Source: Candidatus Levyibacteriota bacterium
Lineage (GTDB): Bacteria; Patescibacteriota; Microgenomatia; Levybacterales; UBA12049
Reading direction: 5' to 3'
DNA length: 54,161 bases
NCBI GenBank assembly: GCA_030651475.1
Contig: JAUSEW010000035.1
Span: forward strand, 1 to 54,161
Of the stretch, positions 3,682-54,161 are shown in pieces. The translations under genes and the position numbers were made by a program. The notes under the pieces were generated by a model, which saw nothing but the letters and a program-made list of their open reading frames with translations, made no database searches and was not told where the DNA came from. The number at the start of each line of letters is the position of its first letter. The stretch's first letter is position 1.

Positions 3682-4272
3682 TCAATTTTGGCCGCCATAA
3701 TATTTATTATACAAGCAAGCATTATCTGCCCACAATCCCCTTTTATTTTCTCTTGTCTCTTTTTCTTTCTCTATGAATTCGTTTCTGTATTTATATTGGT
3801 TCTCTTTATAAGTATATTCATGCGCATATCCTTCTTCAATCATAAGTTTATTAAAGTTAGTTCCATCTTCCAGGAAAACATACCGTAAAAGCCTATTATA
3901 TTGATCTAAATTTCCGCTAGCTGCATCCGACTCAAGAATAACCATTCTGCTTTGCAGAACCTCCTTGGCTTTATTGGAAGCTTCAATTCCAAAACACTGA
4001 ACAGGAATTCTAGGATCAACAACTTCCGGTGTATCAATCCCGATAAGCCTTACGGTCTCCTCTTTATTGTTTATTAAAACTTTTATTGTATCTCCATCGA
4101 TAACTTTAGTTACTTTAAGCAAACTTATCTCTTTAGTAACTTGAGTTACTGTTGGCGTGGGTTTTAAAACAATACTAATCTTGCTTGCTTTTCGATTTCC
4201 TGTAAAAAATCCTCCAAAAACAAACAGGACAGCAAAAAGAAGAAAATAAAAATACAAAAATTTCCTACTCAC
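3682..4272 (-). CDS. Membrane-anchored thermonuclease (SNase family)
   Basis: VTKVIDGDTI, VRLIGIDTPE, DQYNRLLRYV, terminal RGLW motifs; start moved to GTG at 4272 because the longer ORF (to 4473) runs through tRNA-Gln. Confidence 0.9.
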   Translation of the reverse strand: MSRKFLYFYFLLFAVLFVFGGFFTGNRKASKISIVLKPTPTVTQVTKEISLLKVTKVIDGDTIKVLINNKEETVRLIGIDTPEVVDPRIPVQCFGIEASNKAKEVLQSRMVILESDAASGNLDQYNRLLRYVFLEDGTNFNKLMIEEGYAHEYTYKENQYKYRNEFIEKEKETRENKRGLWADNACLYNKYYGGQN

Positions 4273-6430: not shown

Positions 6431-7099
6431 GTGAACATAAAACAATTAAGGGGAATCGAGGGCGCTAAGCAAGCAATAGGTCTCACTGTAGTTATTGATA
6501 TTATGCGTGCAGCAACTGTTGCAGCATATGCATTTGGTCGAGGCGCAAAGAGCATTATTCCCGTTTCAACAAAAGAAGAAGCATTTGCTTTAAGAGATAA
6601 AAATCCAGAATTTCTTCTTATGGGAGAAATAAATGGAATTAAGATTGATGGATTTGATTTTGGGAATTCTCCTTCTGAAATATCGAAAGTGGATTTAAAA
6701 AACAAAATACTCGTACAAAGAACTACATCTGGAACACAAGGTTTGATAAATGCAATCTTTGCAGACACAATCATTTTTGGAAGTTTTGTGACTTGCTCGG
6801 CAATTTTTCGCTTTATTCAAAAAAATAATTTTTCTGATATTTCAATCGTGTCCATAGATAGCGAGGACGAAATATTCGGACATGCTCTTGAATCATTAAT
6901 CACGCAGGGACAGTTTGACAAAGAAAAAGTGAGGAAAGAACTTTATAATGATCCCGGCGTAGAATGGTTCGTTGACCCTCTCAAACCAGATTTTCCCAAA
7001 GAAGATATAGATTTTGCACTAGATTTTGATAAGTTTAATTTTGTCTGTTTGGCAAAAAAAATTAACGATCAACTTATTATAAATAAAGTTAAAATATAG
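6431..7099 (+). CDS. comB: 2-phosphosulfolactate phosphatase (ComB) family protein
   Basis: VVIDIMRAAT, LLMGE, FDFGNSP, VQRTTSGT motifs; GTG start. Confidence 0.85.
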   Translation: MNIKQLRGIEGAKQAIGLTVVIDIMRAATVAAYAFGRGAKSIIPVSTKEEAFALRDKNPEFLLMGEINGIKIDGFDFGNSPSEISKVDLKNKILVQRTTSGTQGLINAIFADTIIFGSFVTCSAIFRFIQKNNFSDISIVSIDSEDEIFGHALESLITQGQFDKEKVRKELYNDPGVEWFVDPLKPDFPKEDIDFALDFDKFNFVCLAKKINDQLIINKVKI

Positions 7100-18954: not shown

Positions 18955-19857
18955 TTATTTTATCTTAATTCTTTCTCTACTCCACTCTTCCCAAATAACA
19001 AGCAATGGAGACGCTATGAATATTGAAGAATAAGTTCCCACAGTAATTCCAATCAATAGTGCTACAACAAACCACCGTATACTTTCTCCGCCAAAAAGAA
19101 GAAGAGCCAGCAAAACCAAAATGACAGTAAGAGATGTGTTTAGCGACCTATCCAATGTTTGAAGAATTGAATCATTAACTATTTTTGCAAATGACATACC
19201 GCCTGTTTTAATCAAATTTTCCCTAATTCTATCGAAGACAACAATAGTGTCATGAACGGAAAATCCGATAATGGTCAGAACCGCTGTTAAGAATAAAGAA
19301 TCTACTTCGACGTTGAAGAAATGCCCTAAGATTGCAAAAATTCCCACAACAACTAAAACATCATGGATCAAAGCTATAATTGCGCAAACTCCAAACTTAA
19401 AACTGCTTGCCGGTTTCGGAACTTTTCTAAAAGCCCACGTTATATATAAAACAATAAGGATGGATGCCACAATAACTGCCTTAATTGCATTAGCTGTTGT
19501 TTCGGCTCCAATTGTCGGACCGATTGTTTCAAACGAGTTCTCTTTTACGACATATTTCTTAGATAATTCTTCCAGAAATTTGTTGTTTTCTTTTTCATCT
19601 ATCGTGCTCGTACGGATAAATACCAAATTATTGGATTTCTCTATTGTTGTAACTTTTACTTTTTGTTCTGTTAGAATTTTCCTTATCGCACTCACATTTT
19701 CCGCGTTAACCGTTTCTTGGAAGGATAAGGCTATTCTTGAACCTCCTGTAAAATCTATGGAAAGATTTAGCCCAAAAAGAAGAATAGATATAAATCCCGG
19801 TATTACCACCAAAAGAGACAGTGCGAAATAAAAATATTTTTTACCTATTATATCCAT
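18955..19857 (-). CDS. secF: Protein translocase subunit SecF
   Basis: IDFTGG, IGPTIG, HDV, GFSVHDTIVVFDRIRE, RSLNTS. Confidence 0.96.
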   Translation of the reverse strand: MDIIGKKYFYFALSLLVVIPGFISILLFGLNLSIDFTGGSRIALSFQETVNAENVSAIRKILTEQKVKVTTIEKSNNLVFIRTSTIDEKENNKFLEELSKKYVVKENSFETIGPTIGAETTANAIKAVIVASILIVLYITWAFRKVPKPASSFKFGVCAIIALIHDVLVVVGIFAILGHFFNVEVDSLFLTAVLTIIGFSVHDTIVVFDRIRENLIKTGGMSFAKIVNDSILQTLDRSLNTSLTVILVLLALLLFGGESIRWFVVALLIGITVGTYSSIFIASPLLVIWEEWSRERIKIK

Positions 19858-21157
19858 ATCTTAAAAAAGTCCTCGTAATTACGATTGCGGAAAACATTGA
19901 TACCAAAACTCCGATTGCCAAAACAAGCGCAAATCCCCTTACTGTTCCTGTACCAAATTGGTACAGAATAGCACTGGTTATAAGAGTCGATATATTAGAA
20001 TCTCTAATCGAAGCCCAAGCTCTTGAAAAACCAAGCTCTATGGCTATATCTTGCGGTTTTTTAAGACGTGTCTCCTCTTTTATTCTTTCGAAAATTAATA
20101 TATTCGCATCAACTGCCATACCGATAGATAAGATAAAACCGGCAACCCCCGATAAAGTTAATGTTATGCCATAGGGAGTTAAAGCACTGATTTTGAAAAT
20201 TGTCAATACGAATAACGCATAAAGAGATAAGGCAACGCTTGCCAATATACCAAGCCTTCCGTAAGAAACACTCATAAATATTACTATAATAATAAATCCC
20301 AAAGCTCCGGCAAAAAGACTCATATTCAAAGACGTTGAGCCCAATGTGGCATCTACAGTATGCTGTTCTAGGGGAATAAGAGGTACGGGCAATGCGCCCG
20401 CATTAAGTTGAGTACTTAAGTCTTTTGCCTGTTCGAAAGTAAATCCTCCTGTAATAACAGCATTACCATTAAGAATCGGGGTATTAACTCTTGGAGCTTC
20501 TATAACCCTATCATCCAACACTATCGCAACTATTTTATTTACATTTTTCGTTGTAATATTGGCAAACTTCTGGCTTCCGGAAGATGTAAAACTTAATTGC
20601 ACCTGCGGTTTACCCGTATTTGAATCAAACGTAACGCTTGTTTCCTGAAGATCTCTGCCGCCAAGATCTGTTTTTATTGCGTTTGGACCTAAGGTTTCCA
20701 AAATTCCAAGAGGATATGCTGAAGAACTAGCTAGTTTTGCGCTCCCGCTTGCACCTTCTTCCCAAAAAGAAAGGCTTGCTGTTGTTCCTATGATTCTTTT
20801 TGCCTGATCTATGTTAACGCTTGGCAGCTCAACTATTATTCTTCCTTCACCGTTCACATTCGCTGTCTGCACTAAGGGTTCCGAAACTCCGAATAAATTA
20901 ATTCTTTTTTCTATTATTGTTTTGGCAGATTCCAAAGCTTGATTTCTTTGGCTGTTGGGAATGCTAGACATATTTGCCTTATAGGTAATGCTGGTTCCTC
21001 CGGCAAGATCCAAGCCTTTTCGGAAATCTAAACCTTTATTTATGGCTAAAAACTTAAATATAGAATTAGAAGTTTTTATTACGGGGAAATTAACTATAAC
21101 TGCAAATATTGTTAAAACTATAATTAGCCAAAGGAGAAATCGCGGTTTTTGTCTCAT
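19841..21157 (-). CDS. secD: Protein translocase subunit SecD
   Basis: GLDLAGG, RINLFGVSEP, LNAGALP, GMAVDANILIFERIKEE. Confidence 0.96.
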   Translation of the reverse strand: MRQKPRFLLWLIIVLTIFAVIVNFPVIKTSNSIFKFLAINKGLDFRKGLDLAGGTSITYKANMSSIPNSQRNQALESAKTIIEKRINLFGVSEPLVQTANVNGEGRIIVELPSVNIDQAKRIIGTTASLSFWEEGASGSAKLASSSAYPLGILETLGPNAIKTDLGGRDLQETSVTFDSNTGKPQVQLSFTSSGSQKFANITTKNVNKIVAIVLDDRVIEAPRVNTPILNGNAVITGGFTFEQAKDLSTQLNAGALPVPLIPLEQHTVDATLGSTSLNMSLFAGALGFIIIVIFMSVSYGRLGILASVALSLYALFVLTIFKISALTPYGITLTLSGVAGFILSIGMAVDANILIFERIKEETRLKKPQDIAIELGFSRAWASIRDSNISTLITSAILYQFGTGTVRGFALVLAIGVLVSMFSAIVITRTFLRYGYNR

Positions 21158-21212
21158 AGATTCGAATTCCTCACTATGACCCTGAGCGAACGAAGTGGGT
21201 CATAGGGGTCAT
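21154..21212. repeat. Palindromic mini-element E1 between duplicated ATGA junction sequences
   Basis: TCAT at 21154-57 and 21209-12; stem CTATGACCC/GGGTCATAG; 15/16 match to 30382-30397. Confidence 0.7.
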
Positions 21213-21784
21213 GCGAGCATACTTTCCTCATCGCCTACAAGCATTACTCTGGATCCGATAAGAATTGATAGAATAAAGGGGTCTCTTTTTTTCTTTCTGA
21301 AAGCAAATTCTTCTTCTGACATAACAGTATAATTTATTTCCGTATTTAATCTTTTCTCTTCATCTCTTACAAGCAGAGCAAGTTCAGGCAAAACTACTGT
21401 TCCGACAATTAGAACATCTACGTCTTCGGGTGCTTTTTTAATTCTCCTGGCGAACTTTCCCGAAAGCATAGCATATTTTATTTTTCCTATTTTTACACGA
21501 TTTTTTAATATTTCGTTTCCGAGCCCGACTGTTTTTGCCCCAAGCTTAAGCAAATCGTAATAGAATGGGTAATTTTTTGATAAGGAGTAGTAAATTCTAT
21601 TCGCTCTTGGTTCTTTTACAAGAATACTTTGCTTTTCTAAAAATGCCAGCTCTCGTCTTACCGCATTTATTTCATCTTTGGTTCTTCTAACTAACTCCCT
21701 GACATGATACATCTCAAAGGGAGATGCCAAAAAAACATTGAGCAACTTCGTTCTTGATTTTGATGTTATTAAATCAGATAACAT
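21209..21784 (-). CDS. Winged-helix (ArsR-like) plus nucleotidyltransferase-like domain protein
   Basis: N-terminal HVRELVR...NAVRRELAFLEK helix-turn-helix; C-terminal LSG...DVDVLIVG. Confidence 0.65.
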   Translation of the reverse strand: MLSDLITSKSRTKLLNVFLASPFEMYHVRELVRRTKDEINAVRRELAFLEKQSILVKEPRANRIYYSLSKNYPFYYDLLKLGAKTVGLGNEILKNRVKIGKIKYAMLSGKFARRIKKAPEDVDVLIVGTVVLPELALLVRDEEKRLNTEINYTVMSEEEFAFRKKKRDPFILSILIGSRVMLVGDEESMLA

Positions 21785-26281: not shown

Positions 26282-27411
26282 TTTTTGGGGTGTTTTTTCC
26301 AGATAACGCGACTATACATTGTAAAGTTCCAAATCAACAATAATCCTGTACCTATGATAAAGTAAATATAGGGATATTTCCTTCCATAAATTAATTCTCC
26401 GACTTTGATTGTTCCGGACTGAATCAGCCAAACGCCAATATTCGAAGTAATGAAGAATTGTAGCATTTTCCATAAATAAGAACTTAGATTAACACCTTTT
26501 CTTTCTTTAAATGTCCAAAGGTTGTTTAGATTGTAATTAGAAAAAATTGCAAACTGGGCGGCTATTATATTAGAAAAAAATAAGCTTAATTTTGTATTAT
26601 TTATAAAAAACGCGTAGAGAAGAATATTTATAACAAAACCTGTGCTTCCGACTACCAAAAATTTTCCGAATGAACCGTATATTAATTCTTTTATTCGGGA
26701 ACTTATAACGTATTTCAAAAGATCAGCGATATATTCTCTCGGCGCAATTTTAGATCTACCCAAAGTCCTGTCTGTAAAATTAATTGGCACTTCTGCAATT
26801 TTGAAACCGTCACGAACTGCTTTGTGCAAAAATGAAACTTGAAATGTGTATCCTAAAAAAGATGTAAGTTCATTTTTTTCTTTAAGAAAAACTTCTTTCT
26901 TAAGACACCTAAACCCTCCTGTCCAATCATGAATTGAGAATCGCATAAGAATTGCTCTAACTAATAGATTCCCAAAGATAGAAAAAAGTTTTCTTTGAAA
27001 TCCCCAATTGGAAGGAATTGATCCTCCCTGACTATACCGAGTTCCAACAACCATATCTGCTCCTTCGTCAATCTTTTTAAGAAACTCCGGAATCTTCTTG
27101 GGGTCGTGAGATAAGTCTGCATCCATCTCAAACATTAGCTCTGCATTCATCTTCTCAATCGCATACGTCATACCTCTTATATAAGCTGCTCCTAATCCTT
27201 TTTTTTCTCCTGCGCAAAGAGCCAAATTTTTCCATTTACTCATCAGCTTTCTTACTTCCTGCGATGTTCCATCGGGTGAGTTATCATCGGCAACCAAAAT
27301 ATTCATATTGTGATTTTTCATACCGGGGAAAATTTGAGTTTCCAGAATATCAATCAAGCGTTCTATGTTTCCTTTTTCGTTGTAGGTGGGAATAATTATA
27401 ACTACTTTCAT
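26278..27411 (-). CDS. GT2 polyprenol-phosphate glycosyltransferase fused to GtrA-like flippase domain
   Basis: IIIPTYNE, DDNSPDG, MDADLSH, FTDRTLGRSK; C-terminal KFLVVG...FSNYNLNNLWTF. Confidence 0.88.
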   Translation of the reverse strand: MKVVIIIPTYNEKGNIERLIDILETQIFPGMKNHNMNILVADDNSPDGTSQEVRKLMSKWKNLALCAGEKKGLGAAYIRGMTYAIEKMNAELMFEMDADLSHDPKKIPEFLKKIDEGADMVVGTRYSQGGSIPSNWGFQRKLFSIFGNLLVRAILMRFSIHDWTGGFRCLKKEVFLKEKNELTSFLGYTFQVSFLHKAVRDGFKIAEVPINFTDRTLGRSKIAPREYIADLLKYVISSRIKELIYGSFGKFLVVGSTGFVINILLYAFFINNTKLSLFFSNIIAAQFAIFSNYNLNNLWTFKERKGVNLSSYLWKMLQFFITSNIGVWLIQSGTIKVGELIYGRKYPYIYFIIGTGLLLIWNFTMYSRVIWKKHPKK

Positions 27412-27416
27412 ATTAT

Positions 27417-28376
27417 TTATAGGTTTTTGAAATATGCTATTGTTTGGCCTAGTCCTTTTTCAAGCGGAATTTTAGGCTGCCAATCCAGTAATTTATTAGC
27501 TTTGTTTATATCCGGATTTCTGCTTTTGGGATCATCTTGCGGAAGATCCTCAAAAACTATTTTAGAAGAAGAATTCGTAATCTTTTTTATGATTCTTGCT
27601 ATTTCTAATATTGTCTTTTCGTCGGGATTTCCTAAATTAATCACCTCTCCTTTCGTATTATCAAGAAACATCGCTTTTCTTAAGCCCTCAACCATATCGT
27701 CTATATAACAAAAGCTTCTTGTTTGTTTTCCGCTGCCGTATACCGTTAATGGACTATTGCTAATGGCTTGATTTACGAAATTGGACACCACTCTGCCATC
27801 ATCTATCTGCATATACGGACCGTATGTGTTAAAAATCCTGATAATTCTTGTGTCTAAATTATGCTTTCTAATATATGCCATTGTTATCGCTTCGCCAAAT
27901 CTCTTTCCCTCATCGTATGAAGAGCGTACGCCGTTTGGATTGACATTGCCAAAATAATTTTCTTTTTGCGGGGATACATTCGGATCGCCATAAATTTCAG
28001 ACGATGAGGCATAAAGAAATTTAGCATTATTTTTTTGAGCTAGTTCCAACAAATTATATGTTCCCACGGAGTTAACAAGCAGAGTTTCTATTGGATGATT
28101 TATATAGCTTCTTGGGCTTTTTTTGTTAGGGGATGCAGGAGATGCAAGATGAAAAATAAAATCTATATGCGGTAATTCCAAGCCAATTTTTAGATCTTTG
28201 GAGATATCATAAGATATGAAGCTAAAATTTTTATTTCTCAAAAGGACGTCTATATTTTTTCTATCTCCGGTTATTAAATTGTCTATTGCTATAACTTGGT
28301 ATTTATCATTGAGGAGTTTTTTGCATAGATGCGAACCTATAAATCCTGCGCCTCCGGCAACCAAAACTGTTTGCAT
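27417..28376 (-). CDS. UDP-glucuronate decarboxylase-like NAD-dependent epimerase/dehydratase
   Basis: GGAGFIGSH, HLASPASP, SSSEIYGDP, YDEGKR, RIFNTYGP, QTRSFCY. Confidence 0.85.
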   Translation of the reverse strand: MQTVLVAGGAGFIGSHLCKKLLNDKYQVIAIDNLITGDRKNIDVLLRNKNFSFISYDISKDLKIGLELPHIDFIFHLASPASPNKKSPRSYINHPIETLLVNSVGTYNLLELAQKNNAKFLYASSSEIYGDPNVSPQKENYFGNVNPNGVRSSYDEGKRFGEAITMAYIRKHNLDTRIIRIFNTYGPYMQIDDGRVVSNFVNQAISNSPLTVYGSGKQTRSFCYIDDMVEGLRKAMFLDNTKGEVINLGNPDEKTILEIARIIKKITNSSSKIVFEDLPQDDPKSRNPDINKANKLLDWQPKIPLEKGLGQTIAYFKNL

Positions 28377-29362: not shown

Positions 29363-30322
29363 TTAAATTATCTTTCTCCAATAGTCCAGAGTATCTTTTA
29401 AAGTAGTTTCCAATGCGATTTTGGGTTCCCATCCGGTCTTATCTGTAAACTTTTTTCTATCACATATCAATTCTTGTTCATCGGAGGGACGGAAACGTGA
29501 TTTATCAACTTTTATCTCTATATTTTTTTTTGATAACAATAGGAGTTTATCTAGAATTTCAGATATCCTGTAAGATGAACCGCTGCCTATGTTATATACA
29601 TCCCCAACCGCACCTTTTTCTAGGGCAAGAAGATATGCTTTAACCATATCTCGAACATCCGTAAAATCCCTTTTCGCAGAAAGGTTGCCTACGAAAATAG
29701 TTGGCTCTGTTTTACCATTTTCTATCTCTGCAATTTGCTTGGCAAATGACGCAACTACAAATTTAGGAGATTGTCTTGGTCCTATATGATTGAATGGCCT
29801 AACTCTAATTATTTTAAGTCCATATGATAAAAAATATTGGAAACCTAAAAAATCTTGGGCTATTTTGGAAACGGAATATGTATTTGTCGGTCTAAAACTT
29901 GTTTCTTCATCTATAGGCAGGTCTTTTTTGTCAACGATACCGTATACATCCGCTGATGAAATTATAAGTATTTTCGTATCTAAAAGTTTGGACTTACGAA
30001 TTGCTTCCAAAAGATTTATTTGGGCTGTTACATTATTCGTTATGGTTGCTGCGGGATTTGCAAAACTATCAGCAGGAGAGGTTAACGCAGCCAAATGAAA
30101 AACTATGTCCGGCTTATACTCATCTATTAAAAGGTTTACTTTTTTATCATCAAGCAAATTAAGCTTTATGGGTTCAATTTTTTCTTTTATGCCGGCTATC
30201 AAACTTAGACTTTCATCTGTTAAATATGTACCCTTAATAGCAAAGTTACCTAATGATAATAAATATTCTGCTAAAAAACTTCCGGCGAAACCGGTAATTC
30301 CTGTTATAAAAACTTTCTTCAT
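29363..30322 (-). CDS. GDP-4-keto-6-deoxy-D-mannose reductase-like (Rmd) SDR
   Basis: TGITGFAGS, YSVSK, RPFNHIGPRQS, GNLSAKRDFTDVRD; adjacent to gmd. Confidence 0.75.
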   Translation of the reverse strand: MKKVFITGITGFAGSFLAEYLLSLGNFAIKGTYLTDESLSLIAGIKEKIEPIKLNLLDDKKVNLLIDEYKPDIVFHLAALTSPADSFANPAATITNNVTAQINLLEAIRKSKLLDTKILIISSADVYGIVDKKDLPIDEETSFRPTNTYSVSKIAQDFLGFQYFLSYGLKIIRVRPFNHIGPRQSPKFVVASFAKQIAEIENGKTEPTIFVGNLSAKRDFTDVRDMVKAYLLALEKGAVGDVYNIGSGSSYRISEILDKLLLLSKKNIEIKVDKSRFRPSDEQELICDRKKFTDKTGWEPKIALETTLKDTLDYWRKII

Positions 30323-30412
30323 ACGTTCGATACGTTCGGTAAACTCAGTATCGCACTGAGCATTGCCGAATGTGCGACAAGCTCAGTATGACCCTGACGA
30401 AGAATGGGTCAT
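30319..30412. repeat. Compound palindromic mini-element E2 between duplicated ATGA junction sequences
   Basis: TCAT at 30319-22 and 30409-12; stems ATGACCC/GGGTCAT and TTCGGTAA-CTCAGT/ACTGAG-TTGCCGAA. Confidence 0.7.
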
Positions 30413-35154: not shown

Positions 35155-35892
35155 TTATAGCTCCCCGTTTTTTACTTTTTGAGCAACCAGATTATTTGCT
35201 TTAAGCAGCTCGTCGTAAGATGTTCCCGCGTCTATCCACCAATCAATAATTCTACATGTCATTGTTCCGTCTTTGAGATAGAAATTATTTAGATCTGTCA
35301 CCTCCAATTCGTTTCGCGCGGACGGAGTAAGGCTTTCTACAAAACTAAACACGCGGCTATCATACATATATATTCCTGTTTGAGCTATGTCCGATTTCGG
35401 GTGCTCCGGCTTTTCTTCGATTGAAATTACTTTTCCTTTATTATCAAGCTCTATAACCCCATATTGCCTAGACTGCGTATCCATTCTGACGCCAAAGACC
35501 ATCGCGCCTTTTTCTTTTTTTTCGAAATCTTTAACAGCGTCCTGCAAATTGAAATTAAAAATATTATCTCCAAGAATTACCAAAATCTTTTCTCCTTTTA
35601 CGAATTCTTTAGCTAAGCTAATTGCATCTGCAATTCCGCCTTTGGGATTTTTTTGAACAGCGTAATACAATTTCATATCAAATTCTTCTCCTGCTCCAAG
35701 TAAGTTCGCGAAATGTCCGGCATGATCCGGAGAACTTGTTAACAACACCTCCTTAATCCCTGCTTTTTTCATTGTCTCAAGAGGATAATAAACCATCGGC
35801 TTATTATAAATAGGCAACAAATGTTTGTTGGTAACCCACGTAAGAGGTCTTAAACGTGTTGCTAATCCTCCTGCTAAAATTACACCTTTCAT
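35155..35892 (-). CDS. rmlA: Glucose-1-phosphate thymidylyltransferase, short form
   Basis: ILAGGLATRLRPLT, NKHLLP, LGDN, EKP, ARNELE, WIDAG. Confidence 0.85.
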   Translation of the reverse strand: MKGVILAGGLATRLRPLTWVTNKHLLPIYNKPMVYYPLETMKKAGIKEVLLTSSPDHAGHFANLLGAGEEFDMKLYYAVQKNPKGGIADAISLAKEFVKGEKILVILGDNIFNFNLQDAVKDFEKKEKGAMVFGVRMDTQSRQYGVIELDNKGKVISIEEKPEHPKSDIAQTGIYMYDSRVFSFVESLTPSARNELEVTDLNNFYLKDGTMTCRIIDWWIDAGTSYDELLKANNLVAQKVKNGEL

Positions 35893-35899
35893 AATTCGA

Positions 35900-36172
35900 T
35901 TACAGTCCGAAACCTCCCTTTAGAATGAACAAAACCATTGATAATCCGATACAACCAACCAAGATATATTCTATCACAATTTTCACATTTAAATCATGAT
36001 TTACCAAATGGTGCAATATTCCCCAGAATATATAAAAAATAGTTACTATAGTAACTTCTATCATCTGAAGCGGTCTGTTTGGGGACGACAAAGAAACAAG
36101 AATTAAGCCAAACGCCAGTATCAGAAACAGGGAGATACCATAACCAATATGGCTATGAAGTTTTTTATACAT
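35900..36172 (-). CDS. Small three-TM hypothetical protein
   Basis: 90 aa, hydrophobic, FWGILHH...EY motif. Confidence 0.65.
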   Translation of the reverse strand: MYKKLHSHIGYGISLFLILAFGLILVSLSSPNRPLQMIEVTIVTIFYIFWGILHHLVNHDLNVKIVIEYILVGCIGLSMVLFILKGGFGL

Positions 36173-48964: not shown

Positions 48965-51727
48965 TTAATTCGGATAGTGGCATTTTTTATATTTTTTCCC
49001 GCTTCCGCAAAAACAGGGGTCGTTGCGGCCGATTTTTATTGCACCCTCACCCTGGCCCTCTCCCCTCGAGGGAGAGGGAACGTTTTCCCCACCCTCCTCC
49101 TTCACCGCTCCGGAGCCTGCGCTTGCTCGGCCCGTCAGGGACCCCTGCATAATAAGTCCTTCTTGTTCCAAAAGTGATGGCGCAACAACCGCGGCAGTAC
49201 CCACTTTAAATACGGTATGCGCAACATCATGCTGAACCGCTGACAACAAATTCTGATACAAATAATACGTTTCCTTTTTATACGCGACGAGCGGATCCTG
49301 CTGTGCATATCCGCGAAGGCCAATGCCGGCACGCAAACGATCAATCGCTACCAAGTGATCAATCCACAGCACATCAAGCGTGCGCACCAAAAGCGCTTTT
49401 TCCATTTCATGCAGAAAATCAGCATTTTCAACGTGCTTTTCCATGTCCGCGTATATCGCGCGCGCGCCGTCTGCCAAAAGTTCTATCGCCTGCCCCGCGG
49501 CATCCTCGGATTGTGTTGTCCCAAATTCACGAAGTTTTTCCAAATGTTCTTTTGAGATTGGATATATTTTCTGAACCGCCGCGGTAATTGCATCAATATC
49601 CCAGTCCGCATCAGGAGTAGCGTGCGCATTCACAATCTCCGCAATTTCGCCACGCACCATGTCTAAAATAATATCTTTCAGTGACGAAAATCCCTCGCTC
49701 GTCACTTCCAATTTATTTTCTGCAAGTTCCAGCATCTCGCGACGACGGCGATAAATAGTCTCGCGATGTTTATTCAAAACATCATCATAATCAAGGAGGT
49801 GTTTGCGGATATCAAAGTTATGGCCTTCCACTTTTTTCTGCGCGGTTTCAATGGCTTTACTCACCATTTTTGCCTCAATAGGCACATCTTCTGGTACACG
49901 GAGGCGCGTCATCATGGATTTAATACGATCACCGGCAAAAATGCGCATAAGATCATCCTCAACCGAAACATAAAATTGCGTAGCACCCGGATCACCCTGA
50001 CGTCCCGCGCGTCCGCGGAGCTGGTTATCAATACGCCGTGATTCATGACGTTCTGTACCCAGCACAAATAATCCGCCGAGTTCCCGGACGCGTGCGGCTT
50101 CATCTTTATCCTGCGGATTGCCGCCGAGCACAATGTCCACGCCGCGGCCTGCCATGTTGGTAGCAAGCGTTACGGCACCCGCGCGTCCTGCTTGCGCAAT
50201 CACTTCAGCTTCACGTTCGTGATTTTTTGCGTTCAACATTTGAAACGGAATACCCTCGCGTTCCAACAGAAGCCCGAGTTCCTCATTTTTTTCAATAGAA
50301 ATAGTACCGAGTAGTACCGGCTGACCGCGCTCGTGCAATTCTTTAATATGACGCACCACGGCCGCAAATTTTGCAGATTCACTGCTATAAATCCTATCCG
50401 GATGATCAATACGCTGATCAATTCTATTGGTGGGCATCACCACTACTTCCAGCTTATAAATTTTTCCAAACTCTTCCGCTTCTGTCACGGCCGTTCCGGT
50501 CATACCGCCGAGTTTTTTATACATGCGGAAATAATTTTGGAACGTGACCGTGGCGAGCGTTTGGCTTTCGCGCTGAATTTTTACATTTTCTTTTGCTTCG
50601 ATGGCTTGATGCAATCCTTCTGAATAGCGGCGGCCGGGCATTTTGCGTCCGGTAAATTCGTCAACAATAATAACCTCATCGCTTTCAACTACATACTGCT
50701 TATCTTTTTGGTACAGCGTTTCTGCACGGAGCGCCTCATCAATATGATGCACCGTGCGGATGCCGGCATCGGTGTAAATGTTGCCCACGCCGAGCCATTG
50801 CTCCATTTTTTTGATACCAGCATCGGTCAAAATAGCACTGCGAAGTTTTTCATCCACCTGATAATCCTCTTCTTTTTTGAGCTGACGCGTGAGACGCGCA
50901 AACTGGTAATACAATTCTGCCGCTTCTGCCGCGGCTCCGGAAATAATGAGCGGCGTGCGCGCTTCATCAACTAAAATGGAGTCCACCTCATCAACAATGG
51001 CGTACAGATGACCGCGCTGAACCATCTCGCCGAGGCGCCCCACCATGTTATCGCGGAGATAATCAAAACCGAATTCATTGTTGGTGCCATAGGTGATGTC
51101 GCACGCGTACGCGGCGGCGCGTTCTGCGGGACGGAGGTAGGTTTTCTCTACTTTAAACGAGCCCGTGGTGTCACGGCTTTCATCACGCGGCGTGCCTTCA
51201 TCTTCCGGCGCGGCGTGTCCGCCGTATTCGGGGTCATAGATAAAAGTGGTGCCTTGATGCTGAATGATACCAACGGAAAGTCCGAGCGCATGGTAAATCT
51301 GTCCCATCCACACCGCGTCGCGTTCGGCAAGATAATCGTTCACGGTCACGAGGTGTACACCAAGACCTGCGAGCGCGTTGAGATACAGCGGCAGAGTTGA
51401 GGTGAGTGTTTTTCCTTCACCGGTGCGCATTTCCGCTATTTGGCCGCGATGGAGCGTGATGCCGCCGGCAAGCTGAACGTCATAATGACGTTGACCGAGG
51501 GTGCGTTTGGAAGCTTCGCGGACTGCAGCGAATGCTTCAGGGAGGAGGTTATCTAGCGTCTCGCCTTTTTCTAAACGCGCGCGGAATTCTTCTGTTTTTG
51601 CGCGGAGCTCGCCCGTGGTGAGACGCACAAAATCCGGCTCAAGTGAGTTTATTTTTTGTACCAGCGGATCCATCTCTTTTACTGCTTTAGCGTTAGGATC
51701 CCCGAAAATTTTGGTGAGGAATGACAT
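48965..51727 (-). CDS. secA: Protein translocase subunit SecA
   Basis: MRTGEGKT, TNNEFGFDYLRDNM, VDEVD, TNMAGRG, QLRGRAGRQGDPG, SEC-C GRNDPCFCGSGKKYKKC. Confidence 0.97.
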   Translation of the reverse strand: MSFLTKIFGDPNAKAVKEMDPLVQKINSLEPDFVRLTTGELRAKTEEFRARLEKGETLDNLLPEAFAAVREASKRTLGQRHYDVQLAGGITLHRGQIAEMRTGEGKTLTSTLPLYLNALAGLGVHLVTVNDYLAERDAVWMGQIYHALGLSVGIIQHQGTTFIYDPEYGGHAAPEDEGTPRDESRDTTGSFKVEKTYLRPAERAAAYACDITYGTNNEFGFDYLRDNMVGRLGEMVQRGHLYAIVDEVDSILVDEARTPLIISGAAAEAAELYYQFARLTRQLKKEEDYQVDEKLRSAILTDAGIKKMEQWLGVGNIYTDAGIRTVHHIDEALRAETLYQKDKQYVVESDEVIIVDEFTGRKMPGRRYSEGLHQAIEAKENVKIQRESQTLATVTFQNYFRMYKKLGGMTGTAVTEAEEFGKIYKLEVVVMPTNRIDQRIDHPDRIYSSESAKFAAVVRHIKELHERGQPVLLGTISIEKNEELGLLLEREGIPFQMLNAKNHEREAEVIAQAGRAGAVTLATNMAGRGVDIVLGGNPQDKDEAARVRELGGLFVLGTERHESRRIDNQLRGRAGRQGDPGATQFYVSVEDDLMRIFAGDRIKSMMTRLRVPEDVPIEAKMVSKAIETAQKKVEGHNFDIRKHLLDYDDVLNKHRETIYRRRREMLELAENKLEVTSEGFSSLKDIILDMVRGEIAEIVNAHATPDADWDIDAITAAVQKIYPISKEHLEKLREFGTTQSEDAAGQAIELLADGARAIYADMEKHVENADFLHEMEKALLVRTLDVLWIDHLVAIDRLRAGIGLRGYAQQDPLVAYKKETYYLYQNLLSAVQHDVAHTVFKVGTAAVVAPSLLEQEGLIMQGSLTGRASAGSGAVKEEGGENVPSPSRGEGQGEGAIKIGRNDPCFCGSGKKYKKCHYPN
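49044..49080. repeat. In-frame REP-like palindrome in secA C-terminal linker
   Basis: CCCTCACCCTGG-CCCTCTCCC-CTCGA-GGGAGAGGG; encodes PSPSRGEGQGEG. Confidence 0.75.
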
Positions 51728-51775
51728 ACGATAAGACCCCTATAACCTATCATCTCCTCACGAAATGGTCAAGCA

Positions 51776-52108
51776 TTACCCTTGCTGTCTCTTGTCAATC
51801 ATTTTTTCTTTTAAATCCACCAGCTGACGCTGAAGTTCTTTCCGCACCACGTCAATCGCGGCATAGAGATCCTCATGCACCTCGCGTGAGCGCACCGGAC
51901 CCTCGTCCGGAATAATCATGTGCACCTCGCAAAAAAAGATGGGGCCTTTGTTGTGATGTTCTGATTCTTTTCCTACTTCTACTTCAACCGTGACGGCCTC
52001 GGGGTTTTTGGTGTGCACGAATTTTTCAAGCGCCTGCATTCTTTCCTCTGCGTGCTGTTTTATTGCCTCCGTGAGTTCTATCCCGAGTCCCTGGATGGTG
52101 ATGTTCAT
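51776..52108 (-). CDS. hpf: Ribosome hibernation factor, short HPF/RaiA type
   Basis: MNITIQG-GIELTEAI, EDLYAAID; no long-HPF C-terminal domain. Confidence 0.88.
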   Translation of the reverse strand: MNITIQGLGIELTEAIKQHAEERMQALEKFVHTKNPEAVTVEVEVGKESEHHNKGPIFFCEVHMIIPDEGPVRSREVHEDLYAAIDVVRKELQRQLVDLKEKMIDKRQQG

Positions 52109-52124
52109 ATGTAAGTGTGATACC

Positions 52125-53078
52125 TTAACCTATATATTGAATTTCCTCTTCAAGCCCTATCCCATAAGAATCATATACCTTTTGCTTAATTTTTTCCACC
52201 AGCGCCTTTACTTCTGCCGCGGTGGCACCGCCGGTATTCACCACAAAATTACCATGCGTTTCTGAGACCATTGCCGCGCCTTCTTTCTCTCCTTTCATGC
52301 CGGAGTGTTCAATAAGCCAGCCAGCAGATATTCTTTTTTTATCCAAAAATTCTTGCGGAATATTTTTGTTTGCCCACGCGGGGTCTATTTCCGTAAATTC
52401 AAAATTTTTAAAGATACATCCGGTGGAGGCGAATCCTTTTGGTTGCGTTTTATTGCGCTTCTCTAAAAACTCCATCATTTTTTTGAGGCCGCCGCGCTCT
52501 TCATCAAATTTCAATTTCAATGTTGCGCCGAGTACAATGCCACTGTTGTGTTTGAAAATGCTGTCGCGATAATGAAATGCACATTCGGCATTGGTAAAGG
52601 TGCGCACTTCTCCATCAACCAGCGCCTGCACGCTTTCAATAACATCTTTTATTTCACTACCGAACGCACCCGCGTTGCCCCGCACCGCGCCGCCAATAGT
52701 TCCGGGCACGCCAATTCCCCATTCAAATCCTGCAAGACCCGCGTCAATGCTGGCGCGCGTGAGTGCGGCCGTAACCACTCCCGCGTCTGCAATAACGGTG
52801 TCATCGGCAACACTGTACGCGTTCATTTCTATTTTTATGGCGACGCCCGCGAATCCTTCATCTGAAACCAGCATGTTGCTACTGCCGCCAAAAACAAAAT
52901 ACGGAAGATCGTGTGCGCTTGCGATGGCGAGCGCTTGTTGTAACTCTTCCGTGTTTTTGACGGGGATGAGGTATTGCGCTGGTCCGCCGATTTTAAAGGT
53001 AGTGTATCGCGCGAGCGGTACACTTTGTTTGGCATTTGGAAATGCTTCCTGAATTTTTTCCCAGAGTTTATCGGACAT
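52125..53078 (-). CDS. murB: UDP-N-acetylenolpyruvoylglucosamine reductase
   Basis: TTFKIGGPA, GGSSN, GIPGT-like GVPGTIGGA, NAGAFG, GCIFKN, HGNFVVN. Confidence 0.95.
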   Translation of the reverse strand: MSDKLWEKIQEAFPNAKQSVPLARYTTFKIGGPAQYLIPVKNTEELQQALAIASAHDLPYFVFGGSSNMLVSDEGFAGVAIKIEMNAYSVADDTVIADAGVVTAALTRASIDAGLAGFEWGIGVPGTIGGAVRGNAGAFGSEIKDVIESVQALVDGEVRTFTNAECAFHYRDSIFKHNSGIVLGATLKLKFDEERGGLKKMMEFLEKRNKTQPKGFASTGCIFKNFEFTEIDPAWANKNIPQEFLDKKRISAGWLIEHSGMKGEKEGAAMVSETHGNFVVNTGGATAAEVKALVEKIKQKVYDSYGIGLEEEIQYIG

Positions 53079-53082
53079 GTTT

Positions 53083-54161
53083 TTATTCTACTAAATTCCG
53101 CGCGACCGAATCAATATCCCCTGCTCCCATGATAACTACTATATCATTCTTTTTGATGTTGGCGCGGAGCCAGCCTTCTGTTTGGTCAAGGGTGGCGGTG
53201 TAGTGCACCGGGAATTGCGCCCTCGCCCCTACTTTTTCCGCGAGCACTTTTGACGTGACATCCTGATCTTTGTCCTCCTCGCGCCCGGCAACATCATAAA
53301 TCTCATTCAACACTAAAACATCTACGGGCGCAACCGTGAGCGCGTCAACAAAATCATTGAACAAGTTTTTTGTTCGGTTGTGCTGATGGGGCTGAAACAC
53401 TAAAATTACGCGCCGATCCGGATATAACTCGCGCACCATAGCCGAAGTTTCCCGAATCGCCGTAGGATGATGGCCGTAATCTGAATACACGAGCGCGCCT
53501 TTATACTCCCCTACTTTTTCAAAACGCCGCCAGATGCCGCGAAAATTTTCCGCAACATGTCCTTGTACCGCAGGCGGCACACCAGCCAAACCCGCGGCAC
53601 TTCCCGCGGCTAACACGTTACGTACATTAAATTCGCCCGGCACGCCCACTTTTATTTCCTGCGTAAAACCTTGCGTGTGCATGTGCGCAACACCCGCGCC
53701 ATCTACACTTTTGTAACCGGAATAATACACGGAGGCAATCGCGGTTTTACCAAACGTGTACGTTTTTCCTTTCCACGTTAATTCTTTGCAGCCGGCGTCA
53801 TCGGCGGATTTTATGAGAATCCCCTCTTCCGGAAGTTCGTTTACAAATTCCTGATACACTTTTATTTCATGTTTCAAATCTTTATAAAAATCCAAATGAT
53901 CCGGTTCAATATACGTCACCACCGCGATGTTTGGTTTGATATGGCGCATGTTGCCCTGATGCTCGCACGCTTCAACCACCAAAAAATTTGAATGACCCAC
54001 GCGCACATTGCCGTGTTCAAATTGCGGCACGAGCGAGCCGACAAAAATGGTGGGATCAAATCCCGCTTCCTGCATCATAAGGCCGATGAGCGCCGTGGTA
54101 GTTGATTTTCCATGCGTGCCCGTGACCGCGATGGTGAATTTCTTTTCTGAAAGCGCGCCCA
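53083..54161 (-). CDS. murC: UDP-N-acetylmuramate--L-alanine ligase, 5'-truncated by window edge
   Basis: Frame continues upstream of 54078 with AVTGTHGKSTTT; VEACE, EPDHLD, RRFE, DYGHHP, FQPH, GAGD. Confidence 0.93.
   Translation of the reverse strand, partial: GALSEKKFTIAVTGTHGKSTTTALIGLMMQEAGFDPTIFVGSLVPQFEHGNVRVGHSNFLVVEACEHQGNMRHIKPNIAVVTYIEPDHLDFYKDLKHEIKVYQEFVNELPEEGILIKSADDAGCKELTWKGKTYTFGKTAIASVYYSGYKSVDGAGVAHMHTQGFTQEIKVGVPGEFNVRNVLAAGSAAGLAGVPPAVQGHVAENFRGIWRRFEKVGEYKGALVYSDYGHHPTAIRETSAMVRELYPDRRVILVFQPHQHNRTKNLFNDFVDALTVAPVDVLVLNEIYDVAGREEDKDQDVTSKVLAEKVGARAQFPVHYTATLDQTEGWLRANIKKNDIVVIMGAGDIDSVARNLVE

Follow-up and report, generated by a model that had tools for sequence, protein, structure and literature searches.

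We identified a short palindromic element, E1, at the junction between secD and the upstream gene p191 in a 54,161-nt stretch of DNA (contig JAUSEW010000035.1; 'the window' denotes this whole stretch). E1 is probably a copy of a small, non-autonomous mobile DNA repeat composed of two hairpins. Alleles in related populations show that units of 43–47 nt are gained and lost with base precision. Insertion or clean absence occurs at sites whose 3–6 nt match the end of the element and complement its centre: ATGA or CTATGA for E1, and ATGA and TCG, respectively, for elements A and B, which are nested at a second site in the window (E2). An element that rebuilds a stop codon, a ribosome-binding site and a start codon at ATGA junctions, with complementarity between centre and flanks and a spread over several phyla, appears to be new. 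No description of the family was found in open-access literature text.

The window has a G+C content of about 36%. The relatives of its SecD protein are Patescibacteria and the closest loci are Levybacteria-like; its source is a Levybacteria-like Patescibacteria genome from groundwater.

Structure of the E1 and E2 elements

On the minus strand, positions 21212..21154 read gcATGA CCCCT ATGA CCC ACTTCGTTCGCTCA GGG TCAT AG TGAGGAATTCGAAT CT ATGA ga (Table 1). The sequence and coordinates of E1 are as given in a first-pass annotation of this DNA, which had also correctly placed the upstream stop codon in the first ATGA and the secD start codon in the last. That annotation described an inserted, ATGA-flanked unit. 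The flanked element stands, but its extent differs: the canonical unit is 46 nt, and the additional 9 nt look like a leftover: they match the opening 3 nt and the final 6 nt of such an element exactly. Because of this identity, the true direct repeat at E1 is the 6-nt CTATGA (CTATGA...CTATGA), which is complementary to the central TCATAG. The leftover may be the footprint of an earlier copy of the element, in which case E1 would record two events.

E1 is predicted to form two hairpins that have TCATAG in common. The first is the 9-bp hairpin that had been noted ahead of the start codon. The start codon of secD lies inside the 3' arm of the second, and a GAGGA sequence is present in the second loop, 10 nt ahead of the secD ATG. 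The fold of the entire 86-nt stretch is no better than that of shuffled sequences (z = -0.5). The pattern ATGACCC-N5-30-GGGTCAT occurs twice in the window, where 0.00 occurrences are expected (none in 100 shuffles). The ATGA sequences on both sides of E1 are present as claimed, but they do not look like a simple target duplication: they belong to the two stems of the element in an ATGA...TCAT...ATGA arrangement.

The second occurrence lies in E2 (30319-30412, minus strand), between genes for a UDP-glucose dehydrogenase and an NAD-dependent epimerase. E2 had been described as one related element. It does occupy the same type of junction and has a 16-nt core in common with E1 (30382-30397 in E2), but it consists of two nested elements: a 43-nt element A that carries a 47-nt element B in its second loop. 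Element A is parsed as ATGA followed by CCC-ATTCTTCGTCA-GGG-TCAT-AC-TGAGCTTGTCGAAC-GT-ATGA, with an inserted part of 43 nt. Element B sits directly after the TCG of the second loop of A, and its centre (CGA) is complementary to this flanking TCG. As B lies inside A, the arrival of B must be an insertion, and E2 records two events. No other stretch is as highly repeated in the metagenome as B (depth 674 versus 160). Both window elements lie on the strand that carries nearly all genes of the window.

Filled, empty and intermediate alleles

We aligned Logan assembler contigs from nine public groundwater runs (X1–X9) to the window; this comparison reports the existence of alleles, not their frequency. 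Run X1 covers the window fully, and the other populations are about 86–93% identical to it over the flanking genes. Three runs (X3, X5 and X7) lack E1 by an exact 55-nt skip with 4 ambiguous bases, leaving a plain ATGA overlap; this single skip, also seen in L001 (below), takes in both the 46-nt element and the 9-nt leftover. In three others (X2, X8 and X9) E1 is absent and the junction reads gcaTAAACTCCTATGAgaca, a short spacer with CTATGA and no element. A variant of E1 is present in X4.

E2 is absent by an exact 90-nt skip, with 4 ambiguous bases, in X2, X7, X8 and X9. In X4 and X5 only element B is missing, by an exact 47-nt skip (30328-30374; joint 30327->30375) with 3 ambiguous bases, and A is one uninterrupted canonical element. 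The nested parse, made from the sequence before this A-only allele turned up, had predicted exactly this. X3 and X4 also contain an E2 remnant, ATGACCCATCGAACGTATGA, that has a 74-nt internal deletion. The ATGA or TCG is present once at an empty site and twice at a filled one.

Genome collections contain the same allele types. The closest relative found there, L001 (SecD 70%, DUF3048 protein 69% and p191 77% identity), has an empty E1 site at which p191 overlaps secD by ATGA (ctggtATGAgtaaa). L200, a metagenome-assembled genome (MAG) of Levyibacteriota that is no closer to the window than L001 (DUF3048 protein 60%), has a canonical element at the p191–secD junction. Presence of the element thus does not track relatedness, as L200 is filled whereas L001, at least as close to the window, is empty. 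The p191 open reading frame (ORF) has 191 codons and the identical end point in L001 and L200 too. At the E2 junction a syntenic relative, L203, is empty and reads ggaagATGAaaaaag. The proposal that removal of the insert restores an ATGA overlap, and that relatives should have such an empty junction, is therefore borne out at E1 (L001, X3, X5 and X7) and at E2 (L203, X2, X7, X8 and X9). The five intact ATGA overlaps listed for the window (8789, 16743, 26278, 31698 and 41325) all exist.

Reverse cases are also present, in which L200 and L203 have elements at junctions that are empty in the window. L200 has a full element at 6571-6620 (ATGACCCATTCGGCAATTGCTAAGGGTCATGGTGAGCTTATCGAACCATGA) between two genes of a glycosylation cluster, where the window has only TAAATAATATGA (27411-27417). 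At window positions 35890-35902, TAATCGAATTATGA is similar to the 3' end of a family element, and the orthologous L203 junction (L203 1210-1264) has a full element ending in TTTATCGAACTATGA. The short remnant pattern TCGAANNATG is not enriched in the window.

Depth rises 4- to 40-fold on the elements only, and foreign contigs begin to match exactly at position 21154. These depth spikes and the base-exact filled and empty alleles are hallmarks of mobile DNA.

A repeat family in at least nine phyla

E1 shares its architecture with 43–47-nt copies in L200, L203 and about 100 other loci. The canonical unit is ATGA followed by CCC-aTTCGA-N4-CTCA-GGG-TCAT-NN-TGAG-N4-5-TCGAA-N'N'-ATGA. Stem 1 is ATGACCC/GGGTCAT and stem 2 is TCATNN/N'N'ATGA, with the central TCAT common to both; the more general pattern of the family is stem1-TTCGA-N-CTCA-stem1'/stem2-TGAG-N-TCGAA-stem2'. 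Stems are 6–7 bp and the conserved loops 13–15 nt. The two loops bear one motif on opposite strands, and nearly every copy pairs an F with an R unit.

A scan for ATGACCCTGA-N-GGGTCAT over one genome per species returned many chance matches, among which those from Patescibacteria, Omnitrophota and Acidobacteriota have a consensus of about 50 nt in common. A second scan fixed only the loop motifs (TTCGA-N3-6-CTCA-N9-TGAG-N3-7-TCGAA) and left the stems unconstrained. Among the matches listed, 107 elements are at new loci, and most are true members of the family. Perfect stems of at least 5 bp enclose the first loop in 77 and the second loop in 74 of these 107 listed elements, compared with 1.5% at random positions. 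The stems themselves are diverse (49 distinct first and 48 distinct second stems among the 107 listed), and stem 2 covaries between copies (GG/CC, AG/CT, CC/GG and GC/GC). In 56 of 76 copies among the matches listed, the stems overlap by 3–4 nt and the centre is complementary to both flanks.

The central sequence is GGGTCAT in AT-rich genomes and GGGTCGT or GGGTCGC in GC-rich genomes, with flanks ACGA or GCGA. The expectation that other copies would also be flanked by ATGA thus holds in the AT-rich branches; the GC-rich branches have CGA or GCGA instead. Several copies can occur in one MAG (at least 3 in JACPXJ01, at least 4 in DAIRFP01 and at least 3 in CAWBPA01).

By record title, the family is present in at least nine phyla: Patescibacteria (many lineages), Acidobacteriota, Omnitrophota, Binatia, Thermodesulfobacteriota, Brocadiia, Opitutia/Verrucomicrobiota, Nitrospirota and Elusimicrobia. 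Organism labels here are record titles, and some automated ones are clearly wrong. Several MAGs whose gene content and synteny clearly place them in Patescibacteria (e.g. L001, L002 and L203) are titled 'uncultured Gammaproteobacteria', 'Bifidobacterium' or 'Rhizobium'.

Some copies of the family are nested in other repeats. At four loci from Binatia and Thermodesulfobacteriota (L214, L216, L233 and L261), elements adjoin or sit within a second hairpin repeat, GTCATTCCCGC-atgctttta-GCGGGAATCC. The element in L233 occupies the loop of this repeat, and the flanks ACCCCC and TTAAAA are also conserved between copies. This arrangement suggests that the second repeat and the element may together form a larger composite repeat.

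Several other readings of the family were considered and rejected. A phage origin is contradicted by the presence of only 3 true copies (plus 15 chance matches) among 2.9 million viral contigs. Pairing between the two loops is contradicted by loop middles that are only 34% complementary. Readings of the loops as hammerhead-like or tRNA T-arm-like were dropped because the required helices are absent. An Rfam scan at gathering thresholds of the window and 18 element-bearing loci detected only tRNAs, and a permissive Rfam scan on E1 returned nothing at E <= 10 beyond noise.

Association with stop and start codons

For TCAT-centred copies in Patescibacteria, a TGA stop codon comes from the left ATGA and an ATG start codon from the right one. 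As stop and start are both resupplied, insertion into an ATGA overlap or an ATGA start keeps both reading frames intact.

We examined this association with a threshold of at least 60 codons per ORF. In a first set of 26 ATGACCC-type copies, an ATGA exactly 17–18 nt after GGGTCAT opens such an ORF in 17, 5 further starts occur at 26–40 nt in longer variants, and the 5' TGA closes such an ORF in 13. In an unbiased set of TCAT-centred copies, the 3' ATGA opens an ORF in 23 of 31 (74%), compared with 26% of all ATGAs at the same loci, and the 5' TGA closes one in 9 of 20 (45%, compared with 9%). The association is thus stronger with ATGA start codons in general, and about half of the copies lie on true stop/start overlaps. 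The view of E1 as a non-autonomous element aimed at translational-coupling junctions largely holds: ATGA flanks and a strong link to starts and stops recur in other genomes, but only about half of the copies are on true overlaps.

The second loop is often purine-rich upstream of the ATG. Copies from Omnitrophota and Binatia read TGAGGAGGATCGAAGG-ATG, with canonical ribosome-binding spacing, and their second loop, TGAGGAGGATCGAA, is a canonical ribosome-binding site at a distance of 8 nt from the ATG. Within the elements, neither promoter-like nor terminator-like sites were detected. A 4-nt overlap is replaced by a structured spacer of 43–90 nt, so termination–reinitiation coupling would be expected to weaken.

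Selection at the RNA level was considered and rejected, as copies show no G.T versus A.C asymmetry; no strand is marked as functional by this measure.

Search for a mobilising enzyme

The statement that the window has no cognate transposase agrees with our profile search, which detected no Y1 transposase there (Y1 was the only type searched). Y1_Tnp (Pfam accession PF01797) genes are common in Patescibacteria, and the first-pass annotation had suggested looking for a RAYT/IS200-like TnpA gene (RAYT, REP-associated tyrosine transposase; REP, repetitive extragenic palindromic) flanked by the E1 hairpin. None was found: a motif scan, a custom profile and 80 Patescibacteria-rich Y1_Tnp loci gave no case of a gene flanked by family units. 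Three of the 80 loci contain a family-type unit, one of which is probably a chance match. A RAYT/Y1 transposase was accordingly rejected as the mobiliser.

ORF clustering over 118 element-bearing loci recovered housekeeping families only and no recurrent neighbour. No full-length parent insertion sequence with the ends of the family was seen at element-bearing loci.

The Y1_Tnp genes of L126 and L361 are each bracketed by direct copies of their own, different short-loop hairpin (L126 5830-5853 and 6469-6492, GATGTCAAAGAGACACTTTGACA; L361 2418-2447 and 3146-3175, GATTACACCCCAAGGGTGTAATCGGAGGTT). In L204 (~3860-3890), yet another type of hairpin is present just upstream of a Y1_Tnp gene that runs off the contig end. 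Patescibacteria have many single RAYT-like Y1_Tnp genes, and from their arrangement the hairpin-bracketed ones look like REPtron-type units in ultra-small genomes.

Possible modes of spread

The central TCAT closes stem 1 with the flanking ATGA and stem 2 with the element's own terminal ATGA. We propose that the target is chosen by base pairing with this central 'guide', much as in IS200/IS605 elements. An enzyme that recognises the conserved loops would carry out the reaction in trans on folded single-stranded DNA. If replication slips across the hairpins from one flanking direct repeat to the other, clean losses and internal deletions could result, and selection would purge insertions that break genes. 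The bias toward junctions could then follow from this purging together with the stop codon, start codon and purine run that the element itself provides, although a 4-nt target and such purging may together explain only part of it.

Several observations weigh against this explanation. First, B is the only case in which gain can be told from loss with certainty, and an element that carries its own ATGA looks the same as a true target duplication. Second, the start-codon bias (74%) exceeds what a 4-nt target plus purifying selection obviously predicts. Third, conservation of the loops across phyla could mean a host function and not selfish spread; no G.T versus A.C asymmetry points to a functional strand. 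Fourth, the window has two sites only, both with degenerate loops. Finally, no mobilising gene was found in the window, beside the 118 element loci or as a flanked Y1_Tnp gene.

Enzyme-free spread by template switching is a rather unlikely alternative. A nascent strand ending in ATGA would slip onto the TCAT of another copy, copy both hairpins and return through the terminal ATGA; losses would be the reverse slippage. No transposase was found near copies, the direct repeats are short (3–6 nt), variable and microhomology-like, and hairpins between direct repeats are classic slippage substrates. The dominance of dimers would also be explained on this account, because only a dimer brings the nascent end back to the same tetranucleotide. 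Template switching nevertheless gives no reason for constant TTCGA/CTCA loops over at least nine phyla while the stems vary, and a homology of only 4 nt should very rarely allow a switch from one locus to a distant one.

It is improbable that the element is instead a cis-acting feature of operon mRNA or DNA that tunes or uncouples downstream translation, stabilises the upstream message or binds a host protein, and that has spread by its benefit. Such a role would fit the strong link to start codons, the run in the second loop that resembles a ribosome-binding site, the position of the start codon within stem 2, the conservation of the loops across phyla and the presence of an element at the p191–secD junction in both the window and L200. 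The central TCAT can pair with the ATGA on the stop side or with that on the start side, so that two mutually exclusive folds are possible; since UCAU can pair with either AUGA, translation of the upstream gene could alter the fold around the start codon. Close relatives, however, have no element at the same junctions, and remnants and nested copies resemble decay and parasitism. GC-rich branches do not have ATGA ends, and the placement of the two loop motifs on opposite strands is consistent with their being recognised in DNA. No G.U tolerance, promoter, terminator or Rfam family was found in favour of this role, and a cis-acting element would still require a way to move.

The third alternative, an ordinary MITE (a miniature transposable element with inverted repeats) that a DDE transposase cuts and pastes, ATGA being its 4-bp target-site duplication, is very unlikely. 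The two loops do form an inverted pair and short direct repeats do flank the copies. In 56 of 76 copies listed, however, the flank complements the centre and belongs to each of the stems, which staggered cutting does not predict; as the flanking repeat depends on the sequence of the element, a DDE-type MITE is not indicated. The length of the repeat varies (3–6 nt), and no parent insertion sequence with these ends was seen.

An assembly artefact, or hairpins that evolved independently in place, is already refuted: source-run Logan contigs break inside E1, as they do in repeats, but the two contigs overlap by 25 nt there and jointly reproduce the window, the independent assembly L200 has an element at the same junction, a single 3910-nt source-run contig spans E2 without a difference, and more than 100 related copies exist elsewhere.

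More broadly, it is possible, and we suggest it only tentatively, that these repeats belong to an unrecognised class of ~45-nt mobile DNA in at least nine phyla, with a programmable central guide of 3–6 nt and a conserved, possibly housekeeping, single-stranded-DNA enzyme that reads the TTCGA/CTCA loops, and that one Patescibacteria lineage has its guide tuned to ATGA. If so, the ATGA-tuned lineage lives in stop/start junctions, where it recreates stop codon, ribosome-binding site and start codon.

The mobile two-hairpin repeat is of interest for several reasons. Its mimicry of gene-boundary signals shows how mobile DNA can persist in genomes with almost no non-coding space. The natural allele series (empty, single, nested and decayed) opens the mechanism of a very small element to direct test, and complementarity between centre and flank suggests sequence-programmable insertion. 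Overlapping, coupled gene pairs become separated, and operon expression in Patescibacteria may change as a result. One architecture links repeats of many uncultured phyla and often yields spurious annotated ORFs; we take spurious peptides such as FDKLRMT or VTLSLSKG, which litter MAG annotations, to correspond to this family.

Other features of the window

Table 1. Features of the E1 and E2 sites and of adjacent genes in the window
Feature	Position	Strand	Description
E1, whole	21154-21212	minus	46-nt canonical element plus 9-nt leftover, between the 191-aa gene and secD
E1 canonical element, 46 nt	21154..21199	minus	CCC-ACTTCGTTCGCTCA-GGG-TCAT-AG-TGAGGAATTCGAAT-CT-ATGA
Nine-nt leftover, CCCCT+ATGA	21200..21208	minus	Holds the CTATGA against which the E1 element inserted
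Upstream ATGA	21209..21212	minus	Its TGA (21211-21209) is the stop codon of the 191-aa ORF
E1 hairpin 1, 9 bp	21174..21205	minus	CTATGACCC / GGGTCATAG; 14-nt loop of degenerate TTCGA..CTCA type; predicted fold
E1 hairpin 2, 6 bp	21154..21179	minus	TCATAG / CTATGA; loop TGAGGAATTCGAAT; found by unit finder
secD start codon	21157-21155	minus	Last ATG of the E1 element; from ORF listing
SecD ORF	19841-21157	minus	Pfam SecD domains
191-aa ORF (p191)	21209-21784	minus	No Pfam domain; upstream of secD
E2 element A, 5' part	30375..30412	minus	ATGA, then CCC-ATTCTTCGTCA-GGG-TCAT-AC-TGAGCTTG-TCG
ATGA with UDP-glucose dehydrogenase stop	30409-30412	minus	From ORF listing
E2 element B, 47 nt	30328..30374	minus	CAC-ATTCGGCAATGCTCA-GTG-CGA-TAC-TGAGTTTACCGAAC-GTA-TCG
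E2 element A, 3' part	30319..30327	minus	AAC-GT-ATGA; epimerase start ATG at 30322-30320
Possible element remnant	35890..35902	minus	TAATCGAATTATGA; at the start of an RmlA-like gene; weak evidence

The p191 gene also lies between a DUF3048 protein gene and secD in L001, L200, L002 and L004. A short stretch inside the p191 ORF (21278-21345) is matched by many unrelated metagenome contigs; depth there is 2–4 times baseline for the source run and reaches ~50 times for others. This stretch probably encodes a very conserved motif of a Patescibacteria-wide protein without an assigned function. By their first start codons, the secD and secF ORFs overlap by 17 nt (19841-19857) and not by ATGA; the true secF start may lie farther downstream.

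At the far end of the window (50001-54000), the G+C content rises from about 0.35 to 0.48–0.51 in the last 4 kb, which span the end of a 920-aa ORF and three ORFs of 110, 317 and 331 aa. No rRNA was detected in this interval.

Comparison with known repeats

In the way it works, the element resembles a REPIN or a miniature derivative of IS200/IS605, yet the features that define either are missing: it has no GTAG/CGTC tag, no flanking RAYT and no TnpA parent. Like the REP, bacterial interspersed mosaic element (BIME) and REPIN sequences of E. coli, Pseudomonas and Stenotrophomonas, the family is short, palindromic, multicopy and non-autonomous, occurs as inverted pairs and lies between operon genes. 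REPs are defined by a conserved GTAG (or CGTC) tetranucleotide at one stem end (PMC3733652). The family instead has RYGA ends (ATGA, ACGA or GCGA) and a GGGTCRY centre, long (13–15 nt) and sequence-conserved loops on variable stems, a location at gene starts and a span of many phyla. Its stems overlap by 3–4 nt, whereas REPIN units are separated by a spacer, and where these genomes have RAYT-like genes, the hairpins that flank them are of other kinds and not family units.

CGTC-tagged REPs, a palindromic superfamily for which no dedicated transposase has been found (Di Nocera et al. 2013; PMC3733652), were considered because the GC-rich stems of the family begin with CGTC. This candidate was rejected: CGTC-tagged REPs have 8–9-bp stems, 4–5-nt loops and a CCA tail, compared with the 6–7-bp stems and 13–15-nt loops of the family. 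The family nevertheless bears on how REP-like repeats spread without a dedicated transposase.

In IS200/IS605 elements, cleavage and target sites are set by pairing with an internal 'guide' tetranucleotide; the same logic has been proposed for REPs, and a changed guide retargets the element (PMC8266576). The family resembles IS608 and ISDra2 of this group in its position directly 3' of a specific short sequence and in its hairpins near both ends. Its centres TCAT, CGA and TCATAG match the flanks ATGA, TCG and CTATGA, an analogy of form only. In contrast to IS200/IS605, the family is ~45 nt in total, no TnpA gene or full-length parent was found, and one centre would serve both ends through Watson–Crick pairing that extends the stems.

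The family also resembles Rickettsia palindromic elements (RPE), enterobacterial repetitive intergenic consensus (ERIC) and Correia repeats, which are selfish palindromic repeats whose insertion keeps reading frames usable. RPE are examples of gene-compatible insertion by selfish repeats in gene-dense genomes (PMC10969869). The family is much smaller than RPE, and no shared sequence was recognised by eye (not by search). REP ends can supply stop codons to neighbouring ORFs, as described for GTAG REPs (PMC3733652). RPE enter genes in frame and are translated with the protein, whereas the family described here lies between genes and recreates both a stop and a start.

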